From: Hypanus sabinus
Taxonomy: Eukaryota
Direction of reading: 5' to 3'
Length of the DNA stretch: 64,000 nucleotides
Assembly: GCF_030144855.1 (NCBI RefSeq)
Contig: NC_082714.1
Span: 94,736,001 to 94,800,000, forward strand
The notes below the pieces were generated by a model. It was not told the DNA's origin. It saw only the letters and a program-made list of their open reading frames with translations, and ran no database searches. Positions 1,851-52,205 of the stretch are shown piece after piece. Within the stretch, counting starts at the first letter, position 1. The number at the start of each line of letters is the position of its first letter. A program made the position numbers and the translations under genes.

Positions 1851-2049
1851 GTGAATAAAGTGGTATTTGATATGGTACTGAAAGGTATGAGCAGTTATAC
1901 ATATGGTAAATGCAAGCGGACTTTTTCCACTGAGTTTGGGTGGGACTTGAACCAGAGGTCCTGGATTATGAGTCATAATGTTGCACAAGGAGACAATGAG
2001 TCCAAGGTCTTCAAGCAGGTGTGTTTTACTTATATTATAAATTTTGCTT

Positions 2050-3380
2050 ACTGAATTCATGCAATCTTTATGCCGGCCATCGTTTTCTCAGTATTACAAA
2101 ATCATTAATGTTTGCATAATTTAAGCCTTCCATCTTCTAAATTGATGCAAATAAACTATGCAGTTGTCACTGCGTATAGAAATAATATTGTATTAATCCG
2201 TGGGAACTCGATAACAACATCGTTCCACAAATATATATCTGTATTAGTTCGTTGTATTACAAGAGTCTCCTTCGCCACCTTCTTCTCTGTTCTTTGAGGC
2301 AAAGTTCGTCCTACAATAGTGAAATCTAAAGCCACATTCACAATTACAAAATTATGACTTTCTAAAGGACACTCTTTCAATCCCTTGGCAAAACTCGTGG
2401 GTGTTGTTGCTACGTTCATCCCACCAATGCATAATCCAGAATGAATTCATTATCCACAGGCAAAGTAGACACGAACAATTCTCATAAATACTGAAACCAC
2501 AATCCAGACGTTCCTGTCTCGTCACGTCCTCTGGACAAGCCCAGGGGTTTCCCCCTTGATGACGTCTGGATAAATCTCACCCTTTCCCGGTACCAGTCAT
2601 AGCAGTAGCATAAGGATATCTAAGTATTCTCATAATATCAACCCACTTTGGGAACCCTTTCCAAAGAGTAACTTAAATAATTTCCATGTTGGGAATGTGA
2701 AATATTACACCAATATATGAATTTCCTTTACTATCATCACATGTACCTAGGGTAACGCAAAACATCTTGCATGATTCAAGGGCAGTTCTTTCTCATCCAT
2801 TCTACTAATTGCTCATCTGATACCCAATTAGGTGATGTGCATCACATTGCAATAAATCAATCATAGCGAGCAATTGGTATATGTAGCACAGATTTCAGGT
2901 TTATATGTTCCCTTATGTAAGAGGTCTCTGCGGTCAATTTTCAAATTTGCTGAATCTTGAAGGGGCTTCAGAAATTTAATTAATTCCAGCAATACCTGTG
3001 ATGCACACCCACCAATTTGATTAGTCTGTATCTAATACCGATGATTTTTCTTCAGTAATATCTCGCATTTTCTGCGAAAGAAATTATATCTGGATTTCTA
3101 AGTCTGCTATATCTGAGGTATTGGCATTGACTGCCCCGATACGTAACCTGCTCCCGCAAATTCCAATAGTCCTCTTTAGCTTTTATTTGTGACTGTCTTA
3201 AACACACTTCTGCTTTGTTGTCTCCCAAGTATGTTATCTATCTGTAGATAAGCGTTCAGGTCTTATTATTTCAGTTAAATTAAAAATTATTTGCGAATGC
3301 TAATACCCTGGTACAGAAGTGACAGATTCGTCTGTATCTACTAATACAAATCCTTCCTCGTTTGCGATACTCTTTGCTAC
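2050..3380 (-). pseudogene. env-like ORF remnant (class I fusion-protein-like)
   Basis: Directly downstream of integrase. Manual translation across frameshifts gives NKS*RGLLEFAGAG..IGAVNANTSDIADLEIQI*FLSQKMRDITEE (basic site, Gly/Ala-rich peptide, heptad-like helix), then PNWVSDEQLVEW and Cys-containing segments (ORF 2156-2419). No CX6CC motif seen. Confidence 0.6.
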
Positions 3381-3429
3381 AGACATACTTATTTCGGACT
3401 GACTTCTGTGTCTAAGTAGACTTTAAATT

Positions 3430-4010
3430 TGTTTTTTCTTTAGTATTGATAGGCTGCAGTATGATTGGTCTCAGTGATGCCACTGCATTCGTTATTATCA
3501 TCAAAATATATGGCAAATCTACATGGCACGTTGTTCTTTGTTGTTTCACCATTTAACCATCATAATATTTAATGTGACTTTCATCCTTCCCATGATTCTA
3601 CTAGACTATGGTCTACAGGGTAAATGAAATATTGGCTTGATCCCTCAGTGTGCATCATCTGGATTGTAAAATGTGTTCCGATTCTATACTCCATGGAAAT
3701 TCACAGCGAGTACAAACCCTTAGGATATTTGCAGTGTATTTGGCCGTATTAGACTTGGTCGGGAAAGCTTCCACGCATTTGGTGGAAGTGTCTACCGCTA
3801 CACTGATATATTTGTACCCTCCTGAGGTTGTTTGAAAGGGCCCAACATAATCCAGTTGTAAATTAGTCCGAGGCCCTCCCACTGGTTAAGTATTTCGGAG
3901 GGCTCCTTTCTTTATATTTCCATCCAGATTGTATTCTGCACAACTCTTGTCTTCGCAATTGTTTACTTAGCGTTCACGTCGCCCGTCATCCAAAACTACC
4001 AACACACCTC
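3430..4010 (-). pseudogene. Retroviral integrase, C-terminal half of the Zn finger plus catalytic core (decayed)
   Basis: NCEDKSCAEYN..GPRTNLQLDYVGP..YKYISVAVDTSTKCVEAFPT..WSIES, then GIKPIFHLPCRP*SSRIMGRMKVTL; ORF 3655-3882. Confidence 0.9.
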
Positions 4011-4499
4011 TTTGTTTTTTTTCTTTCTTTCTTTTCTTTTCTTTCTTTCTAATTCTTTTTATTATTAGTAGTAATATGGACAGAATACAAATGAAATATT
4101 AATAAAGAAATTACAAACATACAAATTCCATTACAGATGAAAAAAAAACATAAACAACAGTTACAATACAAATGAGTTTACCAAGACATAAACCATACAA
4201 TATATGTATGAACATGATAAGTCTAAATATTTCATAATATAAGATATAAAAAAACAGAAAAAAGAAAGAAAAAAAATAGAATGCAAAATTAGCTAATCTA
4301 CTAATCTAATAACTAATAACTAATAAAGAAGAAAAAAGAAGCAAAAAAAGAAAAAAAAGAGAAAAAAAAGGGGGGCTGTTTATAATATCTCACAAGAATA
4401 AATATTCATTAATGCCGTCACTTCCGGTCCTCTCAACATACATAAGCTAAAACCTGGGAAATCAAATGAACTTGGAACGGGGTCATATTACATCATATG

Positions 4500-7400
4500 A
4501 AAATGTTGAATAAATGGTCTCCATAACTTTTCAAATTTAATAGAAGTCTCAAAAACACCACTTCTAATTTTTTCTAAATTTAAACATTACATAGTTTGAG
4601 AGAACCAATTAAATACAGTGGGAGGATTAATTTCCTTCCAATTCAACAATATACATCTTCTAGCCATTAGAGTTAGAAATGCAATCATTCGACGGGCAGA
4701 AGGAGATAAATGCAGTGAGTCTAACATTGGTAAACCAAAAATTGCGGTAATAGGATGAGGTTGTAAATCGATATTCAAAACCGCAGAAATAATATCAAAA
4801 ATATCTTTCCAATATTTTTCCAAAAATGTACAAGACCAAAACATATGAGTTAAAGACGCAATTTCAGATTGGCATCTATCACAGATAGGACTAATATAAG
4901 AGTAAAAATGAGCTAATTTATCATTGGACATATGGGCCCTATGTACGACCTTAAATTGTATTAATGAATGTTTGGCACATATCGATGATGTATTAACTAA
5001 TTGAAGAATTCTATCCCAATTCTCACTAGAAATAATAAGGTTATGCTCTATTTTCCAAACCTTTTTGGTCTTATAAAGGGGCTCTGAACGTATATTCATA
5101 ATTATATTATAAAGTTTTGAAATAAGCCCTTTTTGAAAAGGGTCTAATTCAAATCAACACTCCAAAATATCTGAAGGCACAAAATTTGGAAACGTAGGGA
5201 GTACAGAACTTAAAAAAATGTCTAATCTGTAAATATCTAAAAAAATGAAATCTAGGCAAGTTATATTTGTTGGATAATTGCTCAAAAGACTTAAAACAAT
5301 TGTCCAAAAATAAATCAGAAAATCTTAGTAATCCCTTAGTTTTCCAAGCCGAATAAGCTTGATCTATAATGGAAGGGTGGAAAAAACAATTAGATACAAT
5401 AGGACTATTTAAAACGAATTGAGTCAACCCAAAAAATCTCCGAAATTGAAACCATATACGTAAAGTATGTTTAACTATCGGGTTGTCAATTCGTTTCGGC
5501 AATTTAGAAAGAGCAAAAGGGAGATAAGTCCCTAAAATAGAACCCAGAGCATAAGCTGATACAGATTTAATTTCTAAACTCACCCTGCGAGGGCCGAAAG
5601 GTCCACCCCAATCTTTCAACCAGCATAACAAGTATCTAATATTAACTGCCCAATAATAAAATCTGAAATTAGGTAATGCTAACCAGCCTTCCTTTTTTGT
5701 CTTCTATAAATATATTTTACCTAACCTGGGATTTTTATTCTGCCATATATATGAGGAAATTTTTGAATCAACATTAGTAAAAAAAGATTTTGGAATAAAA
5801 ATTGGTATCGTTTGAAAAATATATAAAAACTTAGGTAAAATAACCATCTTAATAGCATTAATCCTACCTATTAGGGAAAAAGATAATGGTGACCACTTAG
5901 TAAACAAACCTTTAATCTGATCAATTAAGGGTAAAAAAATAAATCTAAATAAATCTTTATGGTTTTTTGTGATTTTGATCCCTAAATAAATAAAAGAATC
6001 ATTAACTAATTTAAAAGGTAAATTTCCATAAATTGGGACCTGTCTATTCAAAGGAAACAATTCACTTTTATTAAGATTTAACTTATACCCAGAAAACTCA
6101 CTAAATTGAGCCAATAATGATAAAAGTGCTGGGATAGATTTCTCCGGGTTAGAAATGAATAGTAATAAATCATCTGCATACAAAGATAACTTATGAATGT
6201 CTGTCCCACGATTAATACCCAAAATATCCTGTGATTGTCTGATGGCAATTGCCAAAGGTTCTAAGGCAATGTTAAATAGTAATGGACTAAGAGGACATCC
6301 TTGTCTAGTGCCCCGAAATAGACGAAAAAAGGGAGATCTTTGATTATTGGTAAACACTAAGGCTACTGGAGCATGATAAATCAATGTAATCCACGATATG
6401 AATATCGGACTAAAATTAAACTTCTCCAACACATTAAATAAGTAAGGCCATTCAACTCTATCAAATGCTTTCTCCGCATCTAATGAAATCACGCATTCTG
6501 AAGTGTCATATGAGGGAGTATAAACAATATTCAATAATCTCCTAATGTTAAAAAAAGAATAGCGATTTTTAATAAAACCGGTTTGATCTTTTGAAATAAT
6601 TTTGGGTAATACCTTCTCCAGTCTAGATGCCAGTAACCTGGAAAAAATCTTGGAGTCTACATTCAATAAAGATATTGGTCTACAGGATGCACAGTTAGTA
6701 GGGTCTTTATCTTTCTTCAATATTAGAGAAATGGAAGCTCTATAAAAAGATTTTGGCAAATTCCCCAATCTAATGGCTTCCTCAAAAACCTTACATAACC
6801 AAGGGGAAAGAGTAGCGGAAAAAAATTTTAAAAATTCAACTGTATAACCATCTGGACCCGGTGCTTTCCCAGAATTCATTGAGGAAATAGCCCCTTTAAT
6901 TTCTACATCCGTAATAGGAGTATCCAATATTGAAAGATCATCAGATGATAATCTTGGAAAATTTAATTTCCCAAGAAAATCACACATGGTATTACGATCC
7001 TGAGGAAATTCAGATTGATACAGGGAGGTATAGAAGTCTTGAAATGCCTTATTTATCTCATCATGATTAACTGTCAAATTCCCATTCTGCTGACAAATCT
7101 TAGTGATTTGACGTTTAAACAAAGCATTCTTCAATTGACTAGCTAACAGTTTACCAGATTTATCACTATGTATATAAAAATCAGATCTAGTTTTCATTAA
7201 TTGATTTTCAATCGAGGATGTAAGTAATAAATTATGTTCCATTTGAAGTTCAACCCTTTGTTTGTAAAGCTCCTTACTAGGAGCAATCGAATATTTCTTA
7301 TCAATCTCTTTAATTTTATCAACCAATAAAAGAGTTTCCGTCTTAGTACGTTTTCTCAAACCAACAGAATAGAAATAATCTGTCCACGTATATATGCTTT

Positions 7401-8270
7401 AAAAGTGTCCCAAAGTGTTCCGCAGGAGATATCATCTGTAGAATTAGTTGAAAAGAAGAAGTCGATCTGCTCCTTCATAAATTTTATAAAGTTCCGAGTC
7501 TTGCAATAAGGTAGAGTCAAATCGCCATTGTCTGGCATTAGAAGCTGTATCCGTAAATTTCATAGAAAGTAATAATGGAGCATGATCTCAGATAGCTATA
7601 ATATCATAGTTACAACCGATTACCAATGGAATAAAACAAGAGTCTACATAAAATAATCAATTCTCGAATAAGAGTGATAAACATGTGAGAAAAAAGAAAA
7701 CTCTTTGTCATTATGATGCCGAAATCTCCAAACATCAAAATCTCAATTATCAGTCAAAAAAGAGTTAATACAAGTGGCCGACCTATTAGGTAAAGTCTGA
7801 ATAGATAAAGATTTATCCATCAAAGGATTTAAGCAACAATTAAAATCACCACCCATTATTAACTTATATTCATTTAGATTGGGTAAAGAAGTAAATAAGG
7901 ACTTAAGAAAGTCAGGACAATCCACATTTGGAGCATAAACATTAACCAAAGCAAACTTTTTATTACAAAGTAAACCCATAATTAACAAAAATCTACCATT
8001 CGGATCCGAAAAAATATCATGTTGAACAAATGGAATAGAGGAGTCAATAAAAATTGAAACTCCTTTTACTTTAGCGTTCGAATTTGCGTGATACTGTTGA
8101 CCCCACCAAAATCTAAAATAACGAAATTTGTCCTCCTTCCTCACATGAGTTTCTTGTACAAAAATGATATGAGCATTAAGTCTTTGGAATACTTTGAAAA
8201 TCTTCTTTCGTTTAATTGGATGATTTAAACCATTAGTATTCCAAGACACAAAATTAATGGTCTGAGCCAT
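4500..8270 (-). CDS. L1 ORF2p (APE endonuclease, RT, Cys-rich C-terminus), broken by a few frameshifts/stops
   Basis: SWNTNGLN, QETH, GGDFN (endonuclease); KAPGPDG, SLDAEKAFD, GTRQGCPLSP, YADD (RT); CDRC..HMFWSC. Confidence 0.95.
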
Positions 8271-9244
8271 AATTCTAAAATCAACCCTCTGGTATAGAAG
8301 GGGTTAACTAACTTGTAAACTCATGCACCCGGAAGAGGAACCAAAGTAAAGAGAGGACCCGGAAGTGACGACAACACAGATATATTTGAAGTTCAAAAAC
8401 AGCCCAAATGAAAAAACTAACACAAACTGATGCAAAAAAAAATAGAATTAGGAAACAGACCATCTCCCCACCCCCCAAGTAAAAGAGAAAAAGCCAAAAT
8501 ATGACTTAAAAAAGGAAAGAATGAGACTAATTCTACTCCTATGTCAGCGAAAGAACAGTCCATATATAAAGGATATATATAAAAAAATCACCCCAACTTT
8601 AAAAATTAAAATCGCTTTAATAAAAACCATATTTCTAAGCATAGTTAGTTGTAAAAAAATAAGAATATAGTCACTAAAAAAACTTATAAATCGGGCTCTA
8701 GCCCAGACAAAACAAAAAATATTTAAGCTATGATAAGCGATGCATTGTAGGAAGAAGACGAAAGAAAGAAAAAAATAACGCCATCTTAAGCAAAACCAAA
8801 AATCTTTTTCAAAAAACCACCATCTTAATCAAAAAAAATTCACCTTCAAAGAGTTAAAAATATACCTTCGAAGGAACAAAGTTAATAGACAAGAAAGTAG
8901 TATAATGGTTAAAGTGTATAAGGCAAAACAATTGATATAACGAAAACACACTTTAACTTAAGTATAAAGTATAGGATAAACCTGCACCAATAACCAGAGG
9001 TTAATTCTGGTTTAAGAAATCGAGAACCATCTTACACGATCAGAATCGTTCATTTATTAGAGAGTGGTGTCTATAGCAGTAGGGAAGTTCTTCTCCAAAT
9101 AATTTCTCGCTTCTGAAGTTGAAAAAAAACCTGGCGTGCAGCATTCGACGGAGAGATTCGAAGCTTCGCAGGGTATAGGAGCGCAGGTTTCAGATTTTTC
9201 TCATAACATTCAGCCATTAACGGTTTAAAAAGAAGCCTTTTTTT

Positions 9245-9901
9245 TTAAAGGTCAGGACTAAACTCTTCAACCAGACGGAAGCAGTAATCTTGGAATTTAA
9301 CCATTCCTGCCCGACGAGCTGCACGTATAAGTTGTTCTTTGTCGTGTACATAATGGAACCGCACAATTACAACCGAAGATTTGTCTGTAGCACTCGGTGA
9401 TCGACGCCGAATTCTATGTGCCCGATCCAATAAAGGAGGGTTATTCGGGAAAATCGTCGGAAACGCTTCTTTTAAAAGTTGAGCAAAATATTTCGAAGGG
9501 TCATCTTTTTCTATGCCGTCTGGAAGACCAAGTATACGTAAGTTCTGTCTTCTGGACCGATTCTCAAAATCGTCACTCTTGGCTTTAAGGGCTTCCATCA
9601 GCTTTATGGTCGAAATTAAATCCTGTTGCAGTTTTTCAATAGTCAAATCTCGCTTCCGAGCATCTTCTTGCAGAGACGCGATAAGAGCTTGTTGCTGGTT
9701 AATTACTGAATCCGTCTTAACCATGTACTCTTGAAAAGCCTTTATATCTTCTTTAAAAAATTGTTGTAGTTGATCAAATTTTTTGTCCAAAACCTCCACA
9801 AACAACTCATAAGTTAATTCAGTTTGTTGTGGCGGAGCCTGCTTCTTTCCGTTACCGTTCGGATTGCGTCCGGGATCTCATCCCTTAGACCTGAAAGACA
9901 T
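9245..9901 (-). CDS. L1 ORF1p (coiled coil plus RRM; Transposase_22-like), disrupted
   Basis: ENRSRRQNLRILGLPDG..LDRAHR..VIVRFH is typical L1 ORF1. Likely ATG at 9901, one in-frame stop near the start, frameshift near 9245. Confidence 0.85.
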
Positions 9902-10195
9902 TTCTGTTTGCATATCTTCAAAAGTTCACAACAAACTCTTGGCAGTAAGTTCAAAAAAAAATTAACAAAGAAACTTTCGGTATAGGTAAAAATAAGCTGA
10001 ATAAGGGTGATCAAAGGTTAAAAAAAAAGTAAAGGTTATGGAGCGAATCCAACACAGTACTCACTCCATGAGCGTCTCCCGCTGACTTTTTGTTTTTTTT
10101 TTCAAGATACTATCGGTTCCCTGGTGTCCCCATAGCTCATGACACCATTGGGTCATCTGATTTCCTTCTCCTCTGAGACAACAAATTTCCCTTTA

Positions 10196-10355
10196 TAGAA
10201 ACACAGAAAACCTGGAGCACAATACAGACACTTCGGCCGTCAATGCTTGCCGAACATGTACTTAATTTAGAAATTACCTAGGGTTACCTATGCCCATCTA
10301 TTTTTCTATGCTCCATGTATCTGTCCTGGGGTATCTTAATACACCCTATCGTGTA
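10196..10355 (-). mobile_element. 5'-truncated CR1 3' end inserted in the ERV pol
   Basis: GCCGAACATGTACTTAATTTAGAAATTACCTAGGG matches CR1 3' ends at 24230, 45570 and 48790; TTTATA on both sides (about 10192 and 10356) is a probable TSD. Confidence 0.75.
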
Positions 10356-10449
10356 TTTATACAGGACTACTCCAAAATTAACTTGTGCATCCTTGTTCTC
10401 TTTGTACGTTGCTGTTCGAGCTCATTCTATTAATATTTTTTAATTCTTT

Positions 10450-10970
10450 GTTTTTCTTCTGCTCCTCAGTTGAATCCATAACTTGACTCTGTTGTTCCTT
10501 CTGTCTTAGCATCTACACTATCTGCGGCTGCCATTCCTGCCTGTTTGAAGTTGCTTGTTTCCGTAAATATTAGCCTTCCTTCTCCCCGCAGGGGGTAATT
10601 TTTTACGGGCTTTCACCTTTATGACTCTGTATTCTTTCCCTTTGCTTCTTCAAATATATACTCAAAATAACTGCAGATGGAAGAGGCTTTCCGTTTGCTG
10701 AAACAAACCCTCTTTCTTCCCACAGAGGCAAATATTCTGTATGACTATACTTTCATACATGCATGCATAAGTATTTTCAGTGTGTATGACGAACCTGGAT
10801 GGGAAACGTATACCACTGCTGTCAGTTATGCTGTCTGCGCACTCATGCTAACTCTAATGCTCTACAATATATTTTCTGGCCATGTTCATCCTCCACATAT
10901 ATGCCGGGTCCAGTTCCCCTCTCACCTATATGCAATGGCAAGGAGCCATCTACAGAGAGAAAGAAAAAAT
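10450..10970 (-). pseudogene. Retroviral RNase H domain (decayed)
   Basis: SVDGS..GERGTGPGIY..SAQTA*LTAVVYV..KVKARKK..G follows the retroviral RNase H pattern. Confidence 0.8.
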
Positions 10971-11009
10971 TAAATAATAGAGTTTTTCCTTCTCCTTTGA
11001 GTCTTCGTT

Positions 11010-11315
11010 AGAACCATAGAACTATAGCAAATTACAGCACAGAAACAGGCCCTTTGGCGCTTCTTGGCTGTGCCGATCCATTTTTCTGCCTAGTCTCACT
11101 GACCTTCACCTGGACCATATCCCTCCATACCTCGCTCATCCATGTACCTGTCCAAGTTTTTCTTAAATGTTAAAAGTGAGTCCGCATTTACCACTTCATC
11201 TGGCAGCTCATTTCACATTCCCACTACTCTCTGTGTGAAGAAAAACCCCCTAATGTTCCCTTTAAACTTTTCCCTTTCACCTTTAACCCGTGACCTCTGT
11301 TTTGTTCTCTCCTAG
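11010..11315 (-). mobile_element. CR1 3' end fragment inserted in the ERV pol
   Basis: Short-repeat tail (AGAACCATAGAACTATAG) plus ACAGCACAGAAACAGGCC..., same family as other CR1 3' ends in the window. Confidence 0.85.
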
Positions 11316-11899
11316 TTGTTAGACATTATTTTATCTGATCTGCTTTTACACAATTTTGATTTGAAACTAATGGTCACTGGGTATCATTTGCTGCGAATGC
11401 TTGACGATCACCTTCACCACCTTGGTACACCAGATTGTCAGCTAACAGAGTGGTGGTATTAACTCACTTTACACTAATGCTTACCCCTTGCACGGCAATG
11501 TTAATTTAGCAATTATGTTTTGTCTTACTGAAACATCATTAAGCCTTACAACGAGTGTACTAAGTGTGTGGAGATATGGTCTGCCAGTATTATATGTAGA
11601 TCAAGTCCCACTATGTATGCAGAATGTAGCAACCCCAGAAAACAGCTAACGAGTGTTCTTTTTCTCACATACGATTTACCCATTTTCTACTGTTGGTAGC
11701 CTGCGTGCAGTATGTGCGACTGGTCTTACCTCTCCATGTGTTTCTGCTGAGAGGGTCGCATCAGTTCCGGCCATCTCCAATGAAAATGGCTCATTTGCTT
11801 TTGGGTTCAGAGCAATCGCAATTGCTAACGCTTGCTTCAGGGCTGTACTGGACTGGGTATGCTGTGCTTTCCATTCTCACAACATATTCTTTTCAGTAA

Positions 11900-13190
11900 A
11901 TCCATTAAAGGATCTGCCTTGGTGGGAAGTACCTAAATCCCTAAAGTATGATCCCTAAAGTACCCTACTCAGCAGTAGGAACTTAGTTCTTTCACAGCTC
12001 GGGGTACAAACAGTTCCATAGCCACCTCTACTTTTCGCTTATCATTTTTTTCCCGGTTTCAAGACAACTAGCTACCTGTTTCCTCACTTGTGTTGTTAAG
12101 GGTTTACCTTTAGTCTGGGTGCATGTAATTATTGCAGCACTGCTGTTAATCGCTGATAATGTTCCAGCTTGATTTCTGCCTGCAGAAGTGGATACTCTAC
12201 GTTTTATACTAAGAATTTAGGCTTTGCAAACCATTTTAACTTTTCCCTTAAATACTTGCAAAATATAGATGGGGAATTATGGAACCACTGCCGGGCAGTG
12301 CCCGTATACTGCTATCCTTGAATTTAATATTACATTAACACTCTCTTTCGAGCGAAATAGGCCAGGAGCCATCAGTTCTATCTCAAACAGTGAACCATTC
12401 AGCTCTTTCGTACTGTTTAACCGCAGCTTCTGAGTTAGTTGTTACAGTTCAGGCTGTTAGCAGATTTACTTTATTCAGTTCTTGATAGTCTATCGTCAAT
12501 CTTCAACTACCATTTGGTTTCCTTACTAGCCATTTAGGTGAGTTGTTAATAGCGGTTACCGGCCTCAGTACCCTTTGTTGTGCCAAACTTTATATTACCT
12601 TACATACATTTTCATCTATTTCTTGGGAAACCCACATTGCTTCTGTGGTTTGGGCTCCAAACGTGGTATGTACACACTGCGAGCGAACGTCCTGCAGTCA
12701 TGCTTGTAAGGAGAAAATGCCCCAATGTTCTTATCAATGATTTGAAGAAACCGTGATCACTGTTCATCTCTGGTTTTATCCAGATTCCGTATAGTGTCCA
12801 GATATTCGCCTACTGCAATCTTTCTGTGATATATGTTATTCATATTATTTAGCATCTGCAAAACCATACCATTAACTGGATCAAAACAAATCCCTCCTTT
12901 GACCATTTAATCACATCCCAGTGTGTGCTCTTGTTCCCGTGGTAAATCAACTACCAGTATTGAATGCTCTAATGCTATATATCCTTGCTAACTTCAAAGG
13001 GTGAACTCACGTGTCCCACTTGCGAATGTCCTGTGAACCCACGTCGGCTGATATTACCTTGTATTTCCCAAACTGCTTTATTTACATTAGTGGTCTTGAC
13101 GGAGTTTCGGGATTCTCCAGTGTCCCAAAAACTGGTCCTAAGAGGTCTCGATCTAATGCTGTTCCATATACTTCTTGGAACACCAGCCAT
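11900..13190 (-). pseudogene. Retroviral protease plus reverse transcriptase (decayed)
   Basis: FWDTGESRNSV..GFTG..ILVVDLP..HTLGCD (protease); DGSWPISLERE..LPGSGFHNSPSIF..LV*NVEYPLLQ (RT, decayed LVQYVDDLLLQ-like)..LKVNP. Confidence 0.8.
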
Positions 13191-13740
13191 AAACGGGATG
13201 AAGATGCAGTGGGATGTTTATCTCTCCTCCAGTAACATTTGTCTAGCACGTCCACCGGGTCCCCTCTGTTAAAACACTGAACAGCCAATATTGCATTATT
13301 TAATTCCTCATTTGTTCCCCCAAATTGTTGTTGCATATCTGGCAAAGGTGAGTGCGTATTTGGATGCAAAAACATTATAATTAATTTTCTTTCCTCAGCG
13401 TCATCTAGGCCGTGTATTATTCTCTGATGACTTGAAACAGTTCCCGAGGGTTTCTTCCGAACCCATGTGTCCTGATGGCTTTAGCAATCTATCTCAGTCG
13501 CTGTACTCCAAACGGAGTGCAGTATGAATGTATTCTGTTTGATTCTCTGTCCAGATTCTAACCCCCGTGACAGTAACCAGGGCAGCCGGTCTGCCGTTGG
13601 AACCGACGATTAGTTAGTATTGTATACCAGCGGAGGATCCTCAAAAGAAAGCGCTTCATCGTTATCATAACACCCCTGATGGTATCATCTGCCAAATGTG
13701 TCCAATACATATCTGCATAAACATTTTTCACTCTTCTTTC
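13150..13740 (-). pseudogene. Gag/capsid-like remnant
   Basis: ORF 13082-13375 TNEELNNAILAVQCFNRGDPVDVLDKC..HPTASSSRLWLVFQEVYG lies directly upstream of the protease; position-based call, C-terminal Gag seems deleted. Confidence 0.55.
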
Positions 13741-14039
13741 AGATCCAAAAGTACATTCTATTCCTCTCTGTGTAGCAAGTTGATCCTGTAGCTTTTGTAT
13801 ATGAGTGAAGCACTTCGTATAATCACTAGTCTTCGTTTACTTTTCAGAAACTGATTTCTGTATCACAATTCAGCTGTTTTGAAATGATTACAATGATTGC
13901 TCAGTGTTGGAGTGAATGAAGTTGAGTGAAGTTGTTCTCTCCGATTCAAGAGTCTGATATTTGAAGAATGATAACGGTTCCTGAATCCAGTGTTCCGGGA
14001 CTCATTACTTCCTTCTTATCGCAGCAACGAGAAGACAGC

Positions 14040-19740: not shown

Positions 19741-19877
19741 GTGAGAGTGGGGTTGGTTCACGCACGAACTATCCATTACAATTATAATTGTTGATGATTG
19801 TTTTTCTCGAGTTGAGCGATTGACTGGCTTCCCGTTTACTAAAAGTCACCCAGTGGTTTTATTGCGCTCTGTTACAG

Positions 19878-20231
19878 GTATCCAGGCAGTCCCTGTCCTC
19901 AGTCAAACCCCAATGGCCGCACCTGCGTCCGCGGGACAAACCGTCCGCATAGAATGCCGAATGCAGAACGGTGATGTTAGAGGTCACTGCATAAGATGGT
20001 ATCGACAGCGTTTCGGAGAGAGACCGGAGTTGGTGTTAGTACACGCTACAAGCGATGATATTTACCGAGGAACAGGGATCACAAACCGTTTTCAACCATC
20101 CAGAGGTACCTCCAGCAACAGTCTCATCCTGACCATCAGCGGTTTGGGGTCCCAGGACTCCGCTGTTTATTACTGTGCAGTGTGGGATAATGGATTTATC
20201 TTCGGTCCAGGCACTATCCTCGGTTTAAAGA
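19878..20231 (+). CDS. Germline-joined VJ exon, IgL sigma-2
   Basis: TTACAG acceptor; VPVLSQTP..IEC..WYRQ..DSAVYYCAVWDNGFIFGPGT; V and J contiguous with no RSS. Confidence 0.97.
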
Positions 20232-20408
20232 GCAAGTGACTCTCTCATTCTGTTACAAACAATTCATATTATATTCCCCAGCTTGATAAATCACCGTCCA
20301 GGAAAGTTTAACCATATCTCTGTGTAACACTTACCCAAAAGGCTGGTATATGTCTGGGGAAACGGAGTTCCAGCAACTCACCAACCCACCTCCCGTATGT
20401 GCAGGTGC

Positions 20409-26439: not shown

Positions 26440-29290
26440 GTTGTTTGTGTTAAATCAAATAAGCGAGATTGTGCTAGCGAGGAGTACTGTGGGAAAGGCT
26501 GACCAGCTGAGGGCGTGGATTGACACGTGGAATTATGACATTCTTGCCATTAGTGTAACTTGGTTATAGGAGGGGCAGGACTGGCGGCTTAATGTTCCAG
26601 GGTTCTGATGTTTCAGACGTCACAGGGGCAGAGGGATGAAGGGTGGGGGGTGGCATTGCTAGTCAGGGAAAATGTTACAGCAGTGCTCAGGCTGGACAGA
26701 ATAGAGGCCTTGTCTACCGAGGCCAAACGGGTGGAGCTGAGAAATAGGGAAGGCATGGCCACATTAATGAGGTTGTATTCTAGACCACCCGATAGTCAGT
26801 GAGAATTGGAGGAACAAATCTGCAGAGAGACAACAGACAACTGCAGGAAACATAAAATTGTGATAGTAGGGGATTTTAATTTTCCACGTATTGATTGGGA
26901 CTCCAGTACTGTTAAAGGTCTAGACGGGTTAGAGTTTCTAAAATGTGTTCAGAAAAGTTTGCTCAATCAATATACAGATGTACCGACTAGAGAGGATGCA
27001 ATACTAGATCTCCTATTAGGAAACGAGTTAGGACAGGTGACGGAAGTGAATGTAGGGGAAAACGTTAGTTCCAGTGATAATAACGTCATTAGTTTCCACT
27101 TGATCATGGACAAAGATAGATCTGCTCCTCGGGTTTAGGTTCTAAACTGGGAAAAACGTCAAATTTGACAAAGTGAGAAAGGATCTAAAAAGCGTGGATT
27201 GGGATAGGTTGTCCATTGTTAAGTGGGAGGCCTTCAGATGAGAAATTTTGAGAGTGCAGAGTTAGTATGATCCTGTCAGGGTTAAAGGCAAAGTGAATAA
27301 GAATAAGAAACCTTGTTCTATAGGGATATAGGAACTCTGATAAAGGAAAAGAGAGGTGAGAAATGTATAGGAATTTGAAGGAGGAAAAGTGCAAAAATAA
27401 CTTAAGAAAGAAATCAGGAGGGCTAAAAGGAGACATGAGGTAGTTTTGGCCGTCAAGGTGAAGCATAATCAAAAGAGCTTCTACAGGTGTATGAAGTGTA
27501 AAAGGATAATAAGGGATAAAATTGGTCCTCTTGAAGATCAGAGTTGTCGGCTATGTATAGAACCAAAAGAAATGGGGGAGATCTTAAATGTTTTTTTGCG
27601 TCTGTAGTTAGTAAGGAAACTGGCATGGAGTCAATGGAAATAAAGCAAACAAGTAGTGAGGTCATGCTACCTATACGGATTGAAAAGGAGGAGGTGCTTG
27701 CTCTCTTGAGGCAAATCAGAGTAGATAAATCTTCAGGACCTGACAGGGTATTCCCTCGGACCTTGAAGGAAACTAGTGTTGAAATTGCAGGGGCCCTGGC
27801 ATATATATTTAAAATGGCGGTGTCTACGGGTCAGGTGACGGAGCTTTGGAGGATAGCTCATGTTGTTCCGTTGTTTAAAAAAGGCTCTAAAAGTAATCTG
27901 GGAAAATATAGGCCGGTAAGTTTAACGTCAATAGTAGGTAAATCATTGGAAGGAAAACTAAGAGATAGGATCTGCAAGTGTTTAGATAGGCAGGCACTTA
28001 TTAGGGAGAGTCAACACGGCTTTGTGTGTGGTTGGTCATGTTTAACAAATCTATTAGAGTTTTTCGAGAAGGTTACAAGGAAAGTGGATGAAGGAAAGGC
28101 AGTAGATGTTGTCTACATGGACTTCAGTAAGGCCTTTGACAAGGTCCCGCATGGGAGATTATTTAGGAAGATTCAGTCCCTCGGTATACATGGTGAGGTA
28201 GTAAATTGGATTATACATTGGCTCAATGGGAGAAGTCAGTGGTAGTGGAGGATTGCTTCTCTGACTGGAGGCCTGTGACTGGTGGTGTGCCACAGTGATC
28301 AGTGCTGGGTCAATTGTTGTTTGTCATCTATATCAATGATCTGGATGATAATGTGGTAAATTGGATCAGCAAATTTGCTGATGATACAAAGACTGGAGGT
28401 GTAGTGGACAGTGAGGAAGGTTTTCAAAGCTTGCAGAGCGATCTGGACCAGCTGGAAAAATGGGCTGAAAAACGGAAGATGGAGTTTAATGCAGACAGGT
28501 TTGAGGTATTGCACTTTGGAAGGAAAAACCAAGGTACAACATACAAGGTAAATAGTAGAGAACTGAGGGGTGCAGTGGAACACAGGCATCTAAGAATACA
28601 GATACAAAATTCCCTAATAGTTGCGTAACAAGTAGAATGGGTAGTAAAGATAACTTTTTGTACATTGACCTTTATAAATCAAATGTATTGAGTATAAGAG
28701 TGTGAATGCTATGGTGAGGTTATATTGGTGAGGCCGAATTTGGAGTATTGTGTGCGGTTTTGGTCACCGAATTACGGGAAGGATATTAATAATGATGATA
28801 GAGTGCAAACAAGTTTTACAATGAAGTTGCCAGGACTTGAGAAACTGAGTTACAGAGACAGGTTGAATAGGTTAAGACTTTATTCCCTGGAGCGTAGAAG
28901 AATGAGGGGAGACTTAATAGAGGTACATAAAATTATGATGGGTATAAATAGAGTGAATGCAAGCAGGCTCTTACCACTGAGGCTAGGGGAGAAAAGAAAG
29001 CAGAGGATATGGGTTAAGGGTGAAGGGGGAAAAGTTTAAAGGGAATATTGTGGGTGGCTTCTTCACAAAGAGAGTGGTGGGAGTGTGGAATGTGCTACCA
29101 GATGAAGTGGTAAATGCGGGCTCAATTTTAACATTTAAGTAAAACTTGGACAGGTACATTGATGAAAGGTGTATGGAGGGATATGGGCCAGGTGCAGGTC
29201 AGTGAGACCAGGCAGAAAAATGGTTCAGCACAGCCAAGAAGGGACAAAAGGCTTGTTTCTGTGTTGTAATGTGCTATGGTTCTATGGTTC
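26440..29290 (+). mobile_element. CR1 LINE, most of ORF2 plus 3' UTR
   Basis: Endonuclease (IVGDFNFP, ILDLLLGN), RT (YMDFSKAFDKVPH, FADD), tail TTCTATGGTTCTA. Confidence 0.95.
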
Positions 29291-29769
29291 TACTTAATAA
29301 ATCCAGAATGGTCAATGGTCATCATTGAATGTTGATCAGAGAGAATTCAGCAGTTCTGCGGAAGCAGAGGTAGGGTGGAGTGGGGAGATTATTGATTTCA
29401 CAGGCCAGTGACCAGATCCTTCTCGTTGAAAGAGGCCATTCAGTGTCTTCTGAATGGCGTGAATGATATTGTCTTCTAATAGCCTTCCATGAGTATCAGA
29501 ACATGGTACATATAACATAGTAGTGCATTTAATATAGTACAGTATGCAGCATCGAACACAGATCATAACATACAACATAGAACTCTACAGAACTGTGCCT
29601 TGGATCATTGCCTTACAGATAGGAAATATGTTAAACACAATGCAGATATTCTGATGCAGTATTTTGACTTTATACGTGAACTGTTCATTTTCCCCCATAG
29701 ATGCTGCCTGACTCATTGTGCTCCTCCAGCACTAATTGAGTTCTTCCAGATAACAGTATTTTCAATGAA

Positions 29770-50505: not shown

Positions 50506-50600
50506 GTGAGTGTCTCATTGCTGAAAAATTGCGACTGCCGCTGATTTTCTATCGCGTATTAAAAGATTGGTGAGACTTCACTTACTCTGCTTCATCGCAG

Positions 50601-50960
50601 GTGTCCTAGCTGTCCCAGTCCTCAATCAGACACTAATGTCCGGTCCTGTCTCCGCGGGGCAGACGGCCAGCTTAGAGTGTCGGATGCAGAACGGAGAGAT
50701 TGGAAGTTACTACATGCGCTGGTATCGACAGCGTCCCGGGGAGAGACCGGAGTGGGTGCTTACGCACGATAACGAGAGGGATAATGAAATACACCGAGGG
50801 AGTGGGATCACAACACGTTTCCAAGCATCCAGAGACACTTCCAGCAACATTCACATCCTGACCATCGGCAGCTTGGAGCCACAGGACTCCGCTGTTTATT
50901 ACTGTTCAGCATGGGATGATGGATTTATCTTCGGTCCAGGCACTATCCTGGATATAAAGA
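50601..50960 (+). CDS. IgL-sigma2: Germline-joined VJ exon, IgL sigma-2 (type I/NS5), intact
   Basis: VPVLNQT..SAGQTASLECRMQNG..WYRQRPGE..SRDTSSNIHILTIGSLEPQDSAVYYCSAWDDGFIFGPGT matches the known NS5/type I pattern; GTAAGT donor at 50961. Confidence 0.97.
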
Positions 50961-52205
50961 GTAAGTGACTCGCTCATTCCAAGGAATTCACATCATAGTC
51001 CCTCCTATTTCCCACAGCTGTGGAAAAAGCCATGCAGGGAATAATGATGCCATCTCTATGCCGTGGGGATGATTGCCCTGTCTCGAATAGGAATAGGAGC
51101 CCATTCGGTACCTCTAACGAGCCATTATTAAATTTCATGGTATTTATGCACAGGCTACATATCGGAATTCGAATGCAACAGTCTGGGGTGGTGGGTGACC
51201 AGATCGATCAAGTAATGTCCCCCATTTAACACTGAACCCGGGTCTATTACTGTCGGAATCGGAACCAGTCCCACTCAATCCCCAAAACTTTCCCCAATAT
51301 TCAGAACTGCTATAAATGGTAGTCAAGGGCTTCAGAATTGACTGCCTCAAGTTCAAAATTTCAACAACGGCACGACCAAGTAAGGAAAACTGCAGATATT
51401 TTAAGGTATAGTGCAGAAAAAATGCTGGAAAACTAGCGCTCTAGTCAGAGGGAGGAGCGAGACAGGTTGGGTTTGCAGATGCCCGGCAGGTAATCACAGT
51501 CTAACCTGAACTGTTCTTGTTTCCTCACTTCTGTTCAGCTCAGGGGCCCACTCTTCTTTTCCGCCATTTCCTCGGCCACCACTGGGCGAGGAAATTTGGA
51601 CATTCCGAAGTGCACCAAATCGGGGAGGGGGATGGGGCGAATTCAATGAGGAATTCGCTCGGCACAGGGACCAGCAGCACCGCATTTGCTCATAATAATG
51701 GGGTCCGGAGTTATGGTAATTGTTTATTGGGAATCGGGAAAGCTTTGCTACAGAGGATACTAGGTTCGAAATCTAAAGTTTGTAGAGCTCCCTCAAACAT
51801 AAAATGCGTCAATTCACGTTCCCAGTTAAGGATCTGAAGAATTATTAGTAAATTATTATTAAACACGAATCTACAGAAATACCAGTAAGCGGGGAGAACC
51901 GTGTGCAGGAACTGGTGAGTGGTATGAATGAGTCTCCTTACTCATCTCTGGTGGGGCCCGGACTTCCCCACCCGGGAAGACAGTGGATGTTAAAATTCAT
52001 TTAGGATTTGTGATTAATCTGGAAAACTCCTCACTGACGCTTTGTCCACTGATGGAATGATTACATCCTCCGCCACACTTTTCATCGTTTGCCTCAGTAC
52101 TCGGTAGCTTCTGATTATTCGCTGCGGAGTTTTCTATCCTCGAGTTACGATAGTCCACAAATTAATATTGTTTCACTTCCACTCCGTTTCCCCTCTCACA
52201 CACAG

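Follow-up and report, generated by a model that had tools for sequence, protein, structure and literature searches.

The stretch of DNA considered here (the window) comprises 64,000 nt of the stingray Hypanus sabinus (GCF_030144855.1 NC_082714.1:94,736,001-94,800,000); coordinates given below without a contig are window positions. It contains a fragment of an old endogenous retrovirus (ERV), now dead. With a probability of about 0.75, the parent was a basal retrovirus outside the lokiretroviruses (lokis) whose envelope protein (Env) belonged to class Ib, the type that resembles the paramyxovirus fusion protein F. The reverse transcriptase (RT) of this ERV family lies outside the lokis. The family Env shows homology to that of lokis in profile searches run in both directions, and a weaker homology to the Envs of foamy viruses and of snakehead retrovirus (SnRV).

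The Element in the Window

The gene order gag-pro-RT-tether-RNase H-integrase-env is kept on the minus strand (2014-13898). The initial annotation, made from the sequence of the window, had read Gag, a DTG protease, RT, RNase H, an HHCC integrase and an env-like region in retroviral order on this strand, and all of them can be located. In the alignments Gag covers 13866-13133 and RT 12657-12099, and env extends from 3365 to ~2070. "Sister" refers to other copies of the family in the stingray genome.

13133..13898, minus: gag remnant (coiled-coil end and capsid); the 5' part of gag and the 5' long terminal repeat (LTR) are absent
12850..13157, minus: aspartic protease remnant, DTG near 13124; the sister frame matches gag-asp_proteas (E 1e-7)
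12000..12657, minus: RT, broken, with a decayed catalytic motif; the window piece joins sister copies (99/97)
11484..11948, minus: tether, a degenerate Ty3-type RNase H; the sister frame matches RT_RNaseH_2 (E 1e-22)
11010..11315, no strand assigned: inserted dispersed repeat, 86% identical to window 28988-29291, presumably the 3' end of a CR1-type element
10432..10968, minus: second RNase H, retroviral-type; the sister frame matches RNase_H (E 2e-10)
10196..10355, no strand assigned: inserted short dispersed repeat with 4 more window copies at 72-80%
10097..10162, minus: integrase, first half of its HHCC finger
4011..10088, minus: L1 retrotransposon within the integrase zinc finger (Transposase_22 and RVT_1 matches)
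3475..4010, minus: integrase, resuming after the L1 with the core; the C-terminal part is deleted
2195..3365, minus: env remnant, matching residues 231-624 of an intact 745-aa relative, P0027
2014..2158, minus: 3' end of env, with partial membrane anchor and tail, 78% identical to the sister copy on contig C16; no 3' LTR follows

The env remnant contains an F2-like segment, a decayed basic cleavage site (~3187-3175), a fusion-peptide-like stretch from ~3172, a heptad helix and then a cysteine-containing C-terminal half. The peptide quoted for it in the initial annotation is present with its single frameshift; it carries two stops (~3178 and ~3086), not one. When the stretch 2101-3400 is compared with a profile of shark and ray Env-like proteins built without loki sequences, all three minus-strand frames match, the best at E 2.4e-16 and 7.3e-9, and none of the 3 plus-strand frames does. 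Pfam scans of the window frames alone are weak (rve E 0.046, RT_RNaseH_2 E 0.11), and Pfam and PDB scans of these frames and of the Env P0001 gave nothing useful for Env.

Three insertions had been proposed (4011-10088, 10196-10355 and 11010-11315), correctly: they are the L1, which is flanked by an A-rich duplication of ~15 bp, and the two dispersed repeats. The dual RNase H had not been described, nor had three deletions relative to sister copies. The first, of ~570 nt at 13131/13132, removed the end of gag with its zinc knuckle and the gag-pol junction. The second, of ~1.4 kb, removed the integrase tail and the N-terminal module of env, and the third took ~200 nt just before the env end. 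An LTR search of the window and the adjoining 10 kb, also new, gave no match. The window copy is an ordinary dead copy, a non-functional provirus fragment with no virus-coding capacity.

Sister Copies and the Parent Virus

The family is an old multicopy ERV of a dasyatid stingray. Searched against the stingray genome, env gave 56 matches, the other copies being 68-85% identical (best 40 scored out of 296 candidates), and RT gave 155 (best 150 scored out of 8323). The better-kept copies encode a coiled-coil Gag with one CCHC knuckle, an RT with a YVDD motif, tether and RNase H, and an HHCC integrase. Among nine regions scanned, the gag-pol junction was found in three copies, and in all three a TGA stop separates the two genes.

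The initial annotation had called for a search for LTRs and intact copies. In sister copies on C16 and C17, gag-pol-env lies between LTRs, and an intact related env gene occurs on C28. The C16 copy has TG..CA LTRs of ~830 nt and a 4-bp target-site duplication (TSD; seen in this one copy). Its primer site matches tRNA-Asn at 16/18 bases, and that of the C18 copy at 15/18. The Kimura two-parameter distance (K2P) between paired LTRs is 0.047 and 0.055. On C78, Env can be read over 509 residues with two stops.

The frame 3' of integrase is a long integrase tail, in frame with the enzyme, in 4/7 copies. An accessory open reading frame (ORF) had been suspected after integrase and was dropped, the frame being continuous with integrase and no separate ORF having been shown.

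In 6 of 19 loci (L010-L014 and L017), the part of env that encodes the F2 segment, fusion peptide and heptads is missing; two of these loci have LTR pairs with K2P ~0.05. Gene models P0028 and P0029 of Heterodontus skip nearly the same part, for which a shared deletion and gene-model splicing are both possible. Loci without the fusion core are consistent with later intragenomic spread, or with a helper.

Placement of the Reverse Transcriptase

The reference set comprised three loki-type contigs and retroviruses from IMG/VR. Among the latter, L143 is SnRV (its RT was matched to the published alignment) and L141 a foamy virus (by Pfam); the group labels of the others we take from their RT motifs. 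Trees were built from RT (57 rows) and from RT plus tether (41 and 40 rows), with only three loki RTs in them. Three rows were dropped from the final RT plus tether tree, two Gypsy rows of odd composition and one gappy row.

By identity, the closest named relatives of the family RT are elements of coelacanth and frog (51-56%), followed by SnRV (47.8%). The other groups are foamy viruses at 35-42%, gamma- and epsilonretroviruses at 36-39%, lokis at 35% and Gypsy elements at 23-33%. The trees place lokis as sister to the rest and the family on the Retroviridae side, with support of 98/97 (RT) and 100/99 in both RT plus tether trees. The RT and tether pieces of the window, which group with the sister copies, fall within the coelacanth/frog clade (98/98). 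In a mixture-model tree, SnRV, foamy, ERV-L-like, gamma, epsilon and delta sequences form a clade (96/94) without the family. This corresponds to a basal non-loki grade ("class III / clade Huo / SnRV-like") and to a lineage with coelacanth and frog members.

The family is not a loki because the RT plus tether trees and approximately unbiased (AU) tests exclude that grouping. Three characters define lokis (Wang and Han 2021, PMC7947760): their RTs form a clade that is the sister group of all retroviruses, their RNase H is dual, and their Env is F0-like. The initial annotation had suggested a loki-like element and expected an RT sister to Retroviridae; the RT instead lies with Retroviridae, across the split that sets lokis apart. 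The loki clade, supported at 100/100, leaves the family outside, and AU tests reject a family-loki grouping (p 0.0136; p 0.0127 on RT alone; p 1.6e-4 on RT plus tether). The RT motif is of the LPQGF type; that of published lokis is CPFGY or closely similar (PMC7947760). A search of the stingray genome with loki RT returned the family as best match (38-39%) and no true loki (best 150 of 30424 candidates scored).

That the family is a true lokiretrovirus, which would be the first found in a cartilaginous fish, is therefore very unlikely, even though several features speak for it. The family Env is closest to loki Env, and integrase (46% identical to loki) and tether score higher against loki than against SnRV, foamy or gamma sequences. 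The integrases of the coelacanth and frog relatives join loki at 95/92. The table of the published loki screen also shows six chondrichthyan genomes without an asterisk, a sign that probably marks positives (PMC7947760). The dual RNase H, a further likeness, is common to all retroviruses and hence not diagnostic. Against these stand the difference in RT identity, the trees and tests above, the RT motif and an extra Env module of ~200 residues.

The trees of RNase H and integrase have mostly poor resolution, with a long-branch warning for RNase H, and SnRV has long branches in all domains. Closeness of the integrase to CGIN1/NYNRIN counts as a loki trait; the integrase tree was built without CGIN1 rows and did not resolve, and NCBI names relatives "NYNRIN-like".

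An env-bearing Ty3/Gypsy element, comparable to errantiviruses with an F-type Env, has also been considered, as such Envs occur widely among the Ty3/Gypsy elements of invertebrates (PMC13524379). On RT alone the AU test leaves this grouping standing (p 0.081). The second, retroviral RNase H speaks against it, as does the ranking of RT matches in the PDB (foamy 139, murine leukemia virus 106 and Ty3 88 bits). On RT plus tether it is rejected at p 7.9e-5, which effectively refutes it, and its probability is close to nil. A grouping with gamma- and epsilonretroviruses is likewise rejected (p 0.021). The other suggestion of the initial annotation, a deep-branching ERV in a cartilaginous fish that is neither gamma/epsilon nor Gypsy, is thus borne out.

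Some results weigh against the placement. A foamy grouping survives the AU test on RT alone (p 0.24), as the Gypsy one does. A family-SnRV grouping is not rejected by it (p 0.415 and 0.24; p 0.064 with ERV-L-like rows) and is recovered in no RT or RT plus tether tree. Loki scores above SnRV for the tether (104 vs 61 bits) and the integrase (216 vs 125 bits), and the trees omit alpha, beta and lenti viruses as well as Odin.

A protein-level search with the family RT gave no match among viral contigs, and the loki RT pattern was not found there either. The stingray genome also contains a young high-copy LTR element, present on many contigs with frames up to ~2000 codons and 32-34% identical to loki RT; it is probably a Gypsy element.

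Homology of the Envelope Protein

P0027, the intact relative of 745 aa, has signal-like and membrane hydrophobic peaks at residues 13 and 702 and a furin site at 291. It was the full-length one among three named proteins found with the C78 Env as query. Neither P0027 nor P0001 contains CX6CC or the immunosuppressive domain (ISD).

An Env profile of the family searched against 1.8 billion proteins gave 41 matches, loki Env among them (E 1.9e-8). Twenty of these were looked up: 18 are from sharks or skates, one is from a frog and one, P0098, is unnamed and 66-67% identical to the Env of loki contigs. Against 1126 viral ORFs, the loki-free profile finds loki Env at E 1e-14 and foamy Env at E 6e-6. 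In the opposite direction, a loki-only profile matches P0027 at E 1.3e-9. In hhalign comparisons with 17 Envs, loki scores 88, SnRV 55 (E 1.6e-5), foamy 28-55, walleye-type epsilon 46 and gamma/delta 19-30, with shuffled sequences reaching at most 28. These results uphold what the initial annotation had read from the window: an Env that is not of the gamma type, that has a basic cleavage site, a fusion peptide and a heptad helix, and in which CX6CC and ISD are absent. The profiles also show it to be homologous to loki Env.

The family Env differs from loki Env by an N-terminal module of ~200 residues, so that its furin site lies at 291 rather than 112-119. Comparison of this module among seven proteins gave zero cross matches.

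The links beyond loki have adverse results of their own. In the search of the 1126 ORFs, hmmsearch gives SnRV Env an E of only 0.22, weaker than epsilon Env at 0.086, and the loki-only profile matches neither of them.

Env could also have been acquired by recombination rather than descent, which would tell against an inherited class Ib Env. The parent would then combine an SnRV-like or class III gag-pol with the env, and perhaps the tether and integrase, of a lokiretrovirus. Env, tether and integrase are indeed nearer to loki than to SnRV, and swaps of retroviral RNase H and integrase domains are documented (PMC7947760). However, 100-280 columns of the family profile can be aligned with the SnRV and foamy Envs at scores above shuffles, which descent accounts for without a swap. 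The long SnRV branches and an Env identity to loki of only ~18-24% count against a transfer as well. Recombination is improbable on this balance, though less so than a true loki, and the preferred reading remains a non-loki virus that inherited its Env.

Several Envs outside the family deserve mention. A walleye-type epsilon Env (L136:5962-9648) and the SnRV Env (L143:6131-9532) lack CX6CC and align over ~250-280 columns of the family profile; these two may also be class Ib. P0080 of Chiloscyllium punctatum (GCC29952.1) is a full-length shark Env of 739 aa, of the same type, with cleavage site and anchor, possibly a second capture or a young provirus. In the frog Discoglossus pictus, the P0114 cluster consists of 32 near-identical proteins homologous to the family Env, and is probably a young ERV with the same Env type.

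Indirect Link to Paramyxovirus F

The class Ib fold of the family Env is inferred through two intermediates. Loki Envs match PF00523, and foamy Env has been described as structurally F-like by cryo-EM (PMC11468914). The initial annotation had asked for an F-protein-like match; the direct F0 match is weak or absent, and the link passes through loki Env.

That weakness counts against the assignment. Neither P0027 nor P0001 has a Pfam F0 match. With a profile that includes loki rows, a PDB match to F0 appears at E 0.0013; without these rows it vanishes, and a larger alignment gives E 0.14-0.42. ESM Atlas matches are all below 0.9 and serve as leads only, and a single-sequence AlphaFold model of P0001 was unusable (predicted local distance difference test, pLDDT, 32).

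Proposed Mechanism and History

In the proposed model, Pol would be made by stop readthrough, as in SnRV, and reverse transcription would be primed by tRNA-Asn. The Env precursor would consist of a signal peptide, a variable N-terminal module, an F2-like segment, a furin site, an N-terminal fusion peptide, heptads and a membrane anchor. The N-terminal module of ~200 residues probably serves in receptor binding. Cleavage at the furin site would create a new N-terminal peptide that enters the target membrane, and refolding of the heptads would then drive fusion. This mechanism is suggested by the anatomy of Env and by analogy with class Ib fusogens.

Four scenarios have been proposed for why loki Env resembles paramyxovirus F and other retroviral Envs do not (PMC7947760). 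The family combines a loki-homologous Env, linked less strongly to the foamy and SnRV Envs as well, with an RT from across the loki split. This favours the scenarios in which an F-like Env was already present in the common ancestor of lokis and other retroviruses; it would have been replaced later in gamma/delta-type lineages. Such an ancestral Env appears to be the simplest history because of the homology that links the family Env to that of lokis and, at a weaker level, to those of foamy virus and SnRV.

A Candidate Captured env Gene

The intact related env gene lies outside the window.

C28:118004210-118006423, minus: intact 745-aa env gene (P0027, L066, NCBI LOC132401028, Hypanus sabinus), with exon 1 at C28:118011875

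The locus encodes residues 8-745 of P0027 letter for letter and stop-free, in 736 open codons, and the protein is 46-49% identical to the family Env. An exon that lies upstream of the 5' LTR, within an old dispersed repeat, supplies the first 9 codons; a GT..AG intron of ~5.4 kb separates it from the rest. The surrounding provirus is decayed: its LTR pair has a K2P of 0.279, an RNase H-integrase remnant (34%) contains 3 stops, and gag, protease and RT are not detectable in it. A second stingray genus, represented by Hemitrygon akajei, has an Env of equal length that is identical at 716/745 positions (96%).

The gene is a candidate for capture because its open frame was kept while the provirus decayed, and because it is conserved in Hemitrygon akajei and spliced. 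In a neutral simulation that ignores indels, the frame stayed stop-free in 0/2000 runs at half the LTR divergence and in 133/2000 at 3%. It belongs to a cluster of 7 duplicated units (C28:117.65-118.41 Mb), and all six others have stops or indels at ~3% divergence. In one contig of a run guessed to be RNA (X1), the env acceptor is joined to the upstream exon, with 29/30 bases matching.

Some caution comes from three sides. The ratio of nonsynonymous to synonymous differences (pN/pS) against the broken paralogs is 0.54-1.21 and uninformative, the LTR pair could be recombinant, and expression rests on that one contig of one presumed RNA run. Capture by the host is nonetheless probable; a syncytin-like role is considerably less so.

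Implications

The family Env calls into question whether every orthoretrovirus Env is of class Ia, as has been stated (PMC11468914). The C28 gene offers a natural full-length protein with which to test the fold. It is also a candidate for an Env captured by a live-bearing fish, of a kind that would escape screens based on syncytins.

A bolder proposal, which is on the unlikely side, is that the family and its relatives in coelacanth, frog and turtle split off after lokis and before all sampled exogenous retroviruses, keeping the ancestral F-like Env, tether and integrase. One Env would then have been domesticated as a syncytin-like fusogen in live-bearing stingrays, different in type from known syncytins. 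If true, the family would settle the question of Env origin: a single class Ib Env would be ancestral, and most orthoretroviruses would have exchanged it later for another.

Within the accessible portions of the open literature (including PMC9040795, PMC13524379, PMC12583693, PMC11521997, PMC12193657, PMC13709493 and bioRxiv 2024.03.17.585361), no report was found in which a loki-type Env accompanies an RT that is neither loki nor foamy. No paper was found in the open literature that ties an SnRV-like Env to loki Env or F. The stingray env gene is unnamed in the open literature found; the supplements of bioRxiv 10.64898/2026.05.06.723177 may list the locus.

Other Content of the Window

On the plus strand, window 19745-20239 holds an immunoglobulin V-set frame that ends in a J-like FGPGT motif, and a similar copy lies near 50598-50979. 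We take the first to resemble a germline-joined light-chain gene of cartilaginous fish.

Comparison with Known Systems

Among named viruses, SnRV has the RT nearest to that of the family. It shares the coiled-coil Gag, the single CCHC knuckle, the in-frame stop before pol, and an Env with a large N-terminal extension that lacks CX6CC and can be aligned by hhalign. SnRV-like ERVs have been reported from elephant shark (PMC4422223); they are CmiERV lineage I of Han 2015 and fall within clade Huo of Xu et al. 2018, a wide group (PMC6001957, PMC8922424). The family differs in its junction stop, which is TGA rather than the TAG of SnRV, in a shorter Env with a short tail, in a tether and integrase nearer to loki, and in grouping with SnRV in no tree.

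Lokis share with the family a homologous Env, in which an RX(K/R)R site is combined with a fusion peptide, a coiled coil and an anchor, as well as the dual RNase H and a similar tether and integrase. The differences are an RT outside the loki clade, the extra N-terminal module of Env, and the fact that no chondrichthyan is among the reported loki hosts.

Foamy viruses are not known to have a CCHC knuckle or an in-frame gag-pol junction, whereas the family has both, and the trees keep the two apart. The family Env has no Pfam match to Foamy_virus_ENV. The likeness lies in the best PDB match of RT and in a weakly homologous Env, itself F-like in foamy viruses (PMC11468914).

ERV4 of crocodilians and turtles is likewise an ERV of neither class I nor class II, with an env and a basal position (Chong et al. 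2014, PMC4299795). It has a 5-bp TSD and no Gag zinc finger (PMC4299795), in contrast to the 4-bp TSD (one copy) and CCHC knuckle of the family, and was rejected as defined on these two characters. Gamma/epsilon (class I) membership was rejected as well, on the absence of CX6CC and ISD from P0027 and P0001 and on the AU test.

The C28 gene alone can be compared with syncytins, percomORF and recent shark candidates (bioRxiv 10.64898/2026.05.06.723177), with which it shares an intact env near a decayed pol, conservation between species and splicing. The screen that yielded the chondrichthyan candidates required a BLAST match to syncytin and an ISD (bioRxiv 10.64898/2026.05.06.723177). Syncytin-like Envs carry the ISD and a CX6-7C disulfide motif, whereas the C28 Env has neither ISD nor CX6CC.

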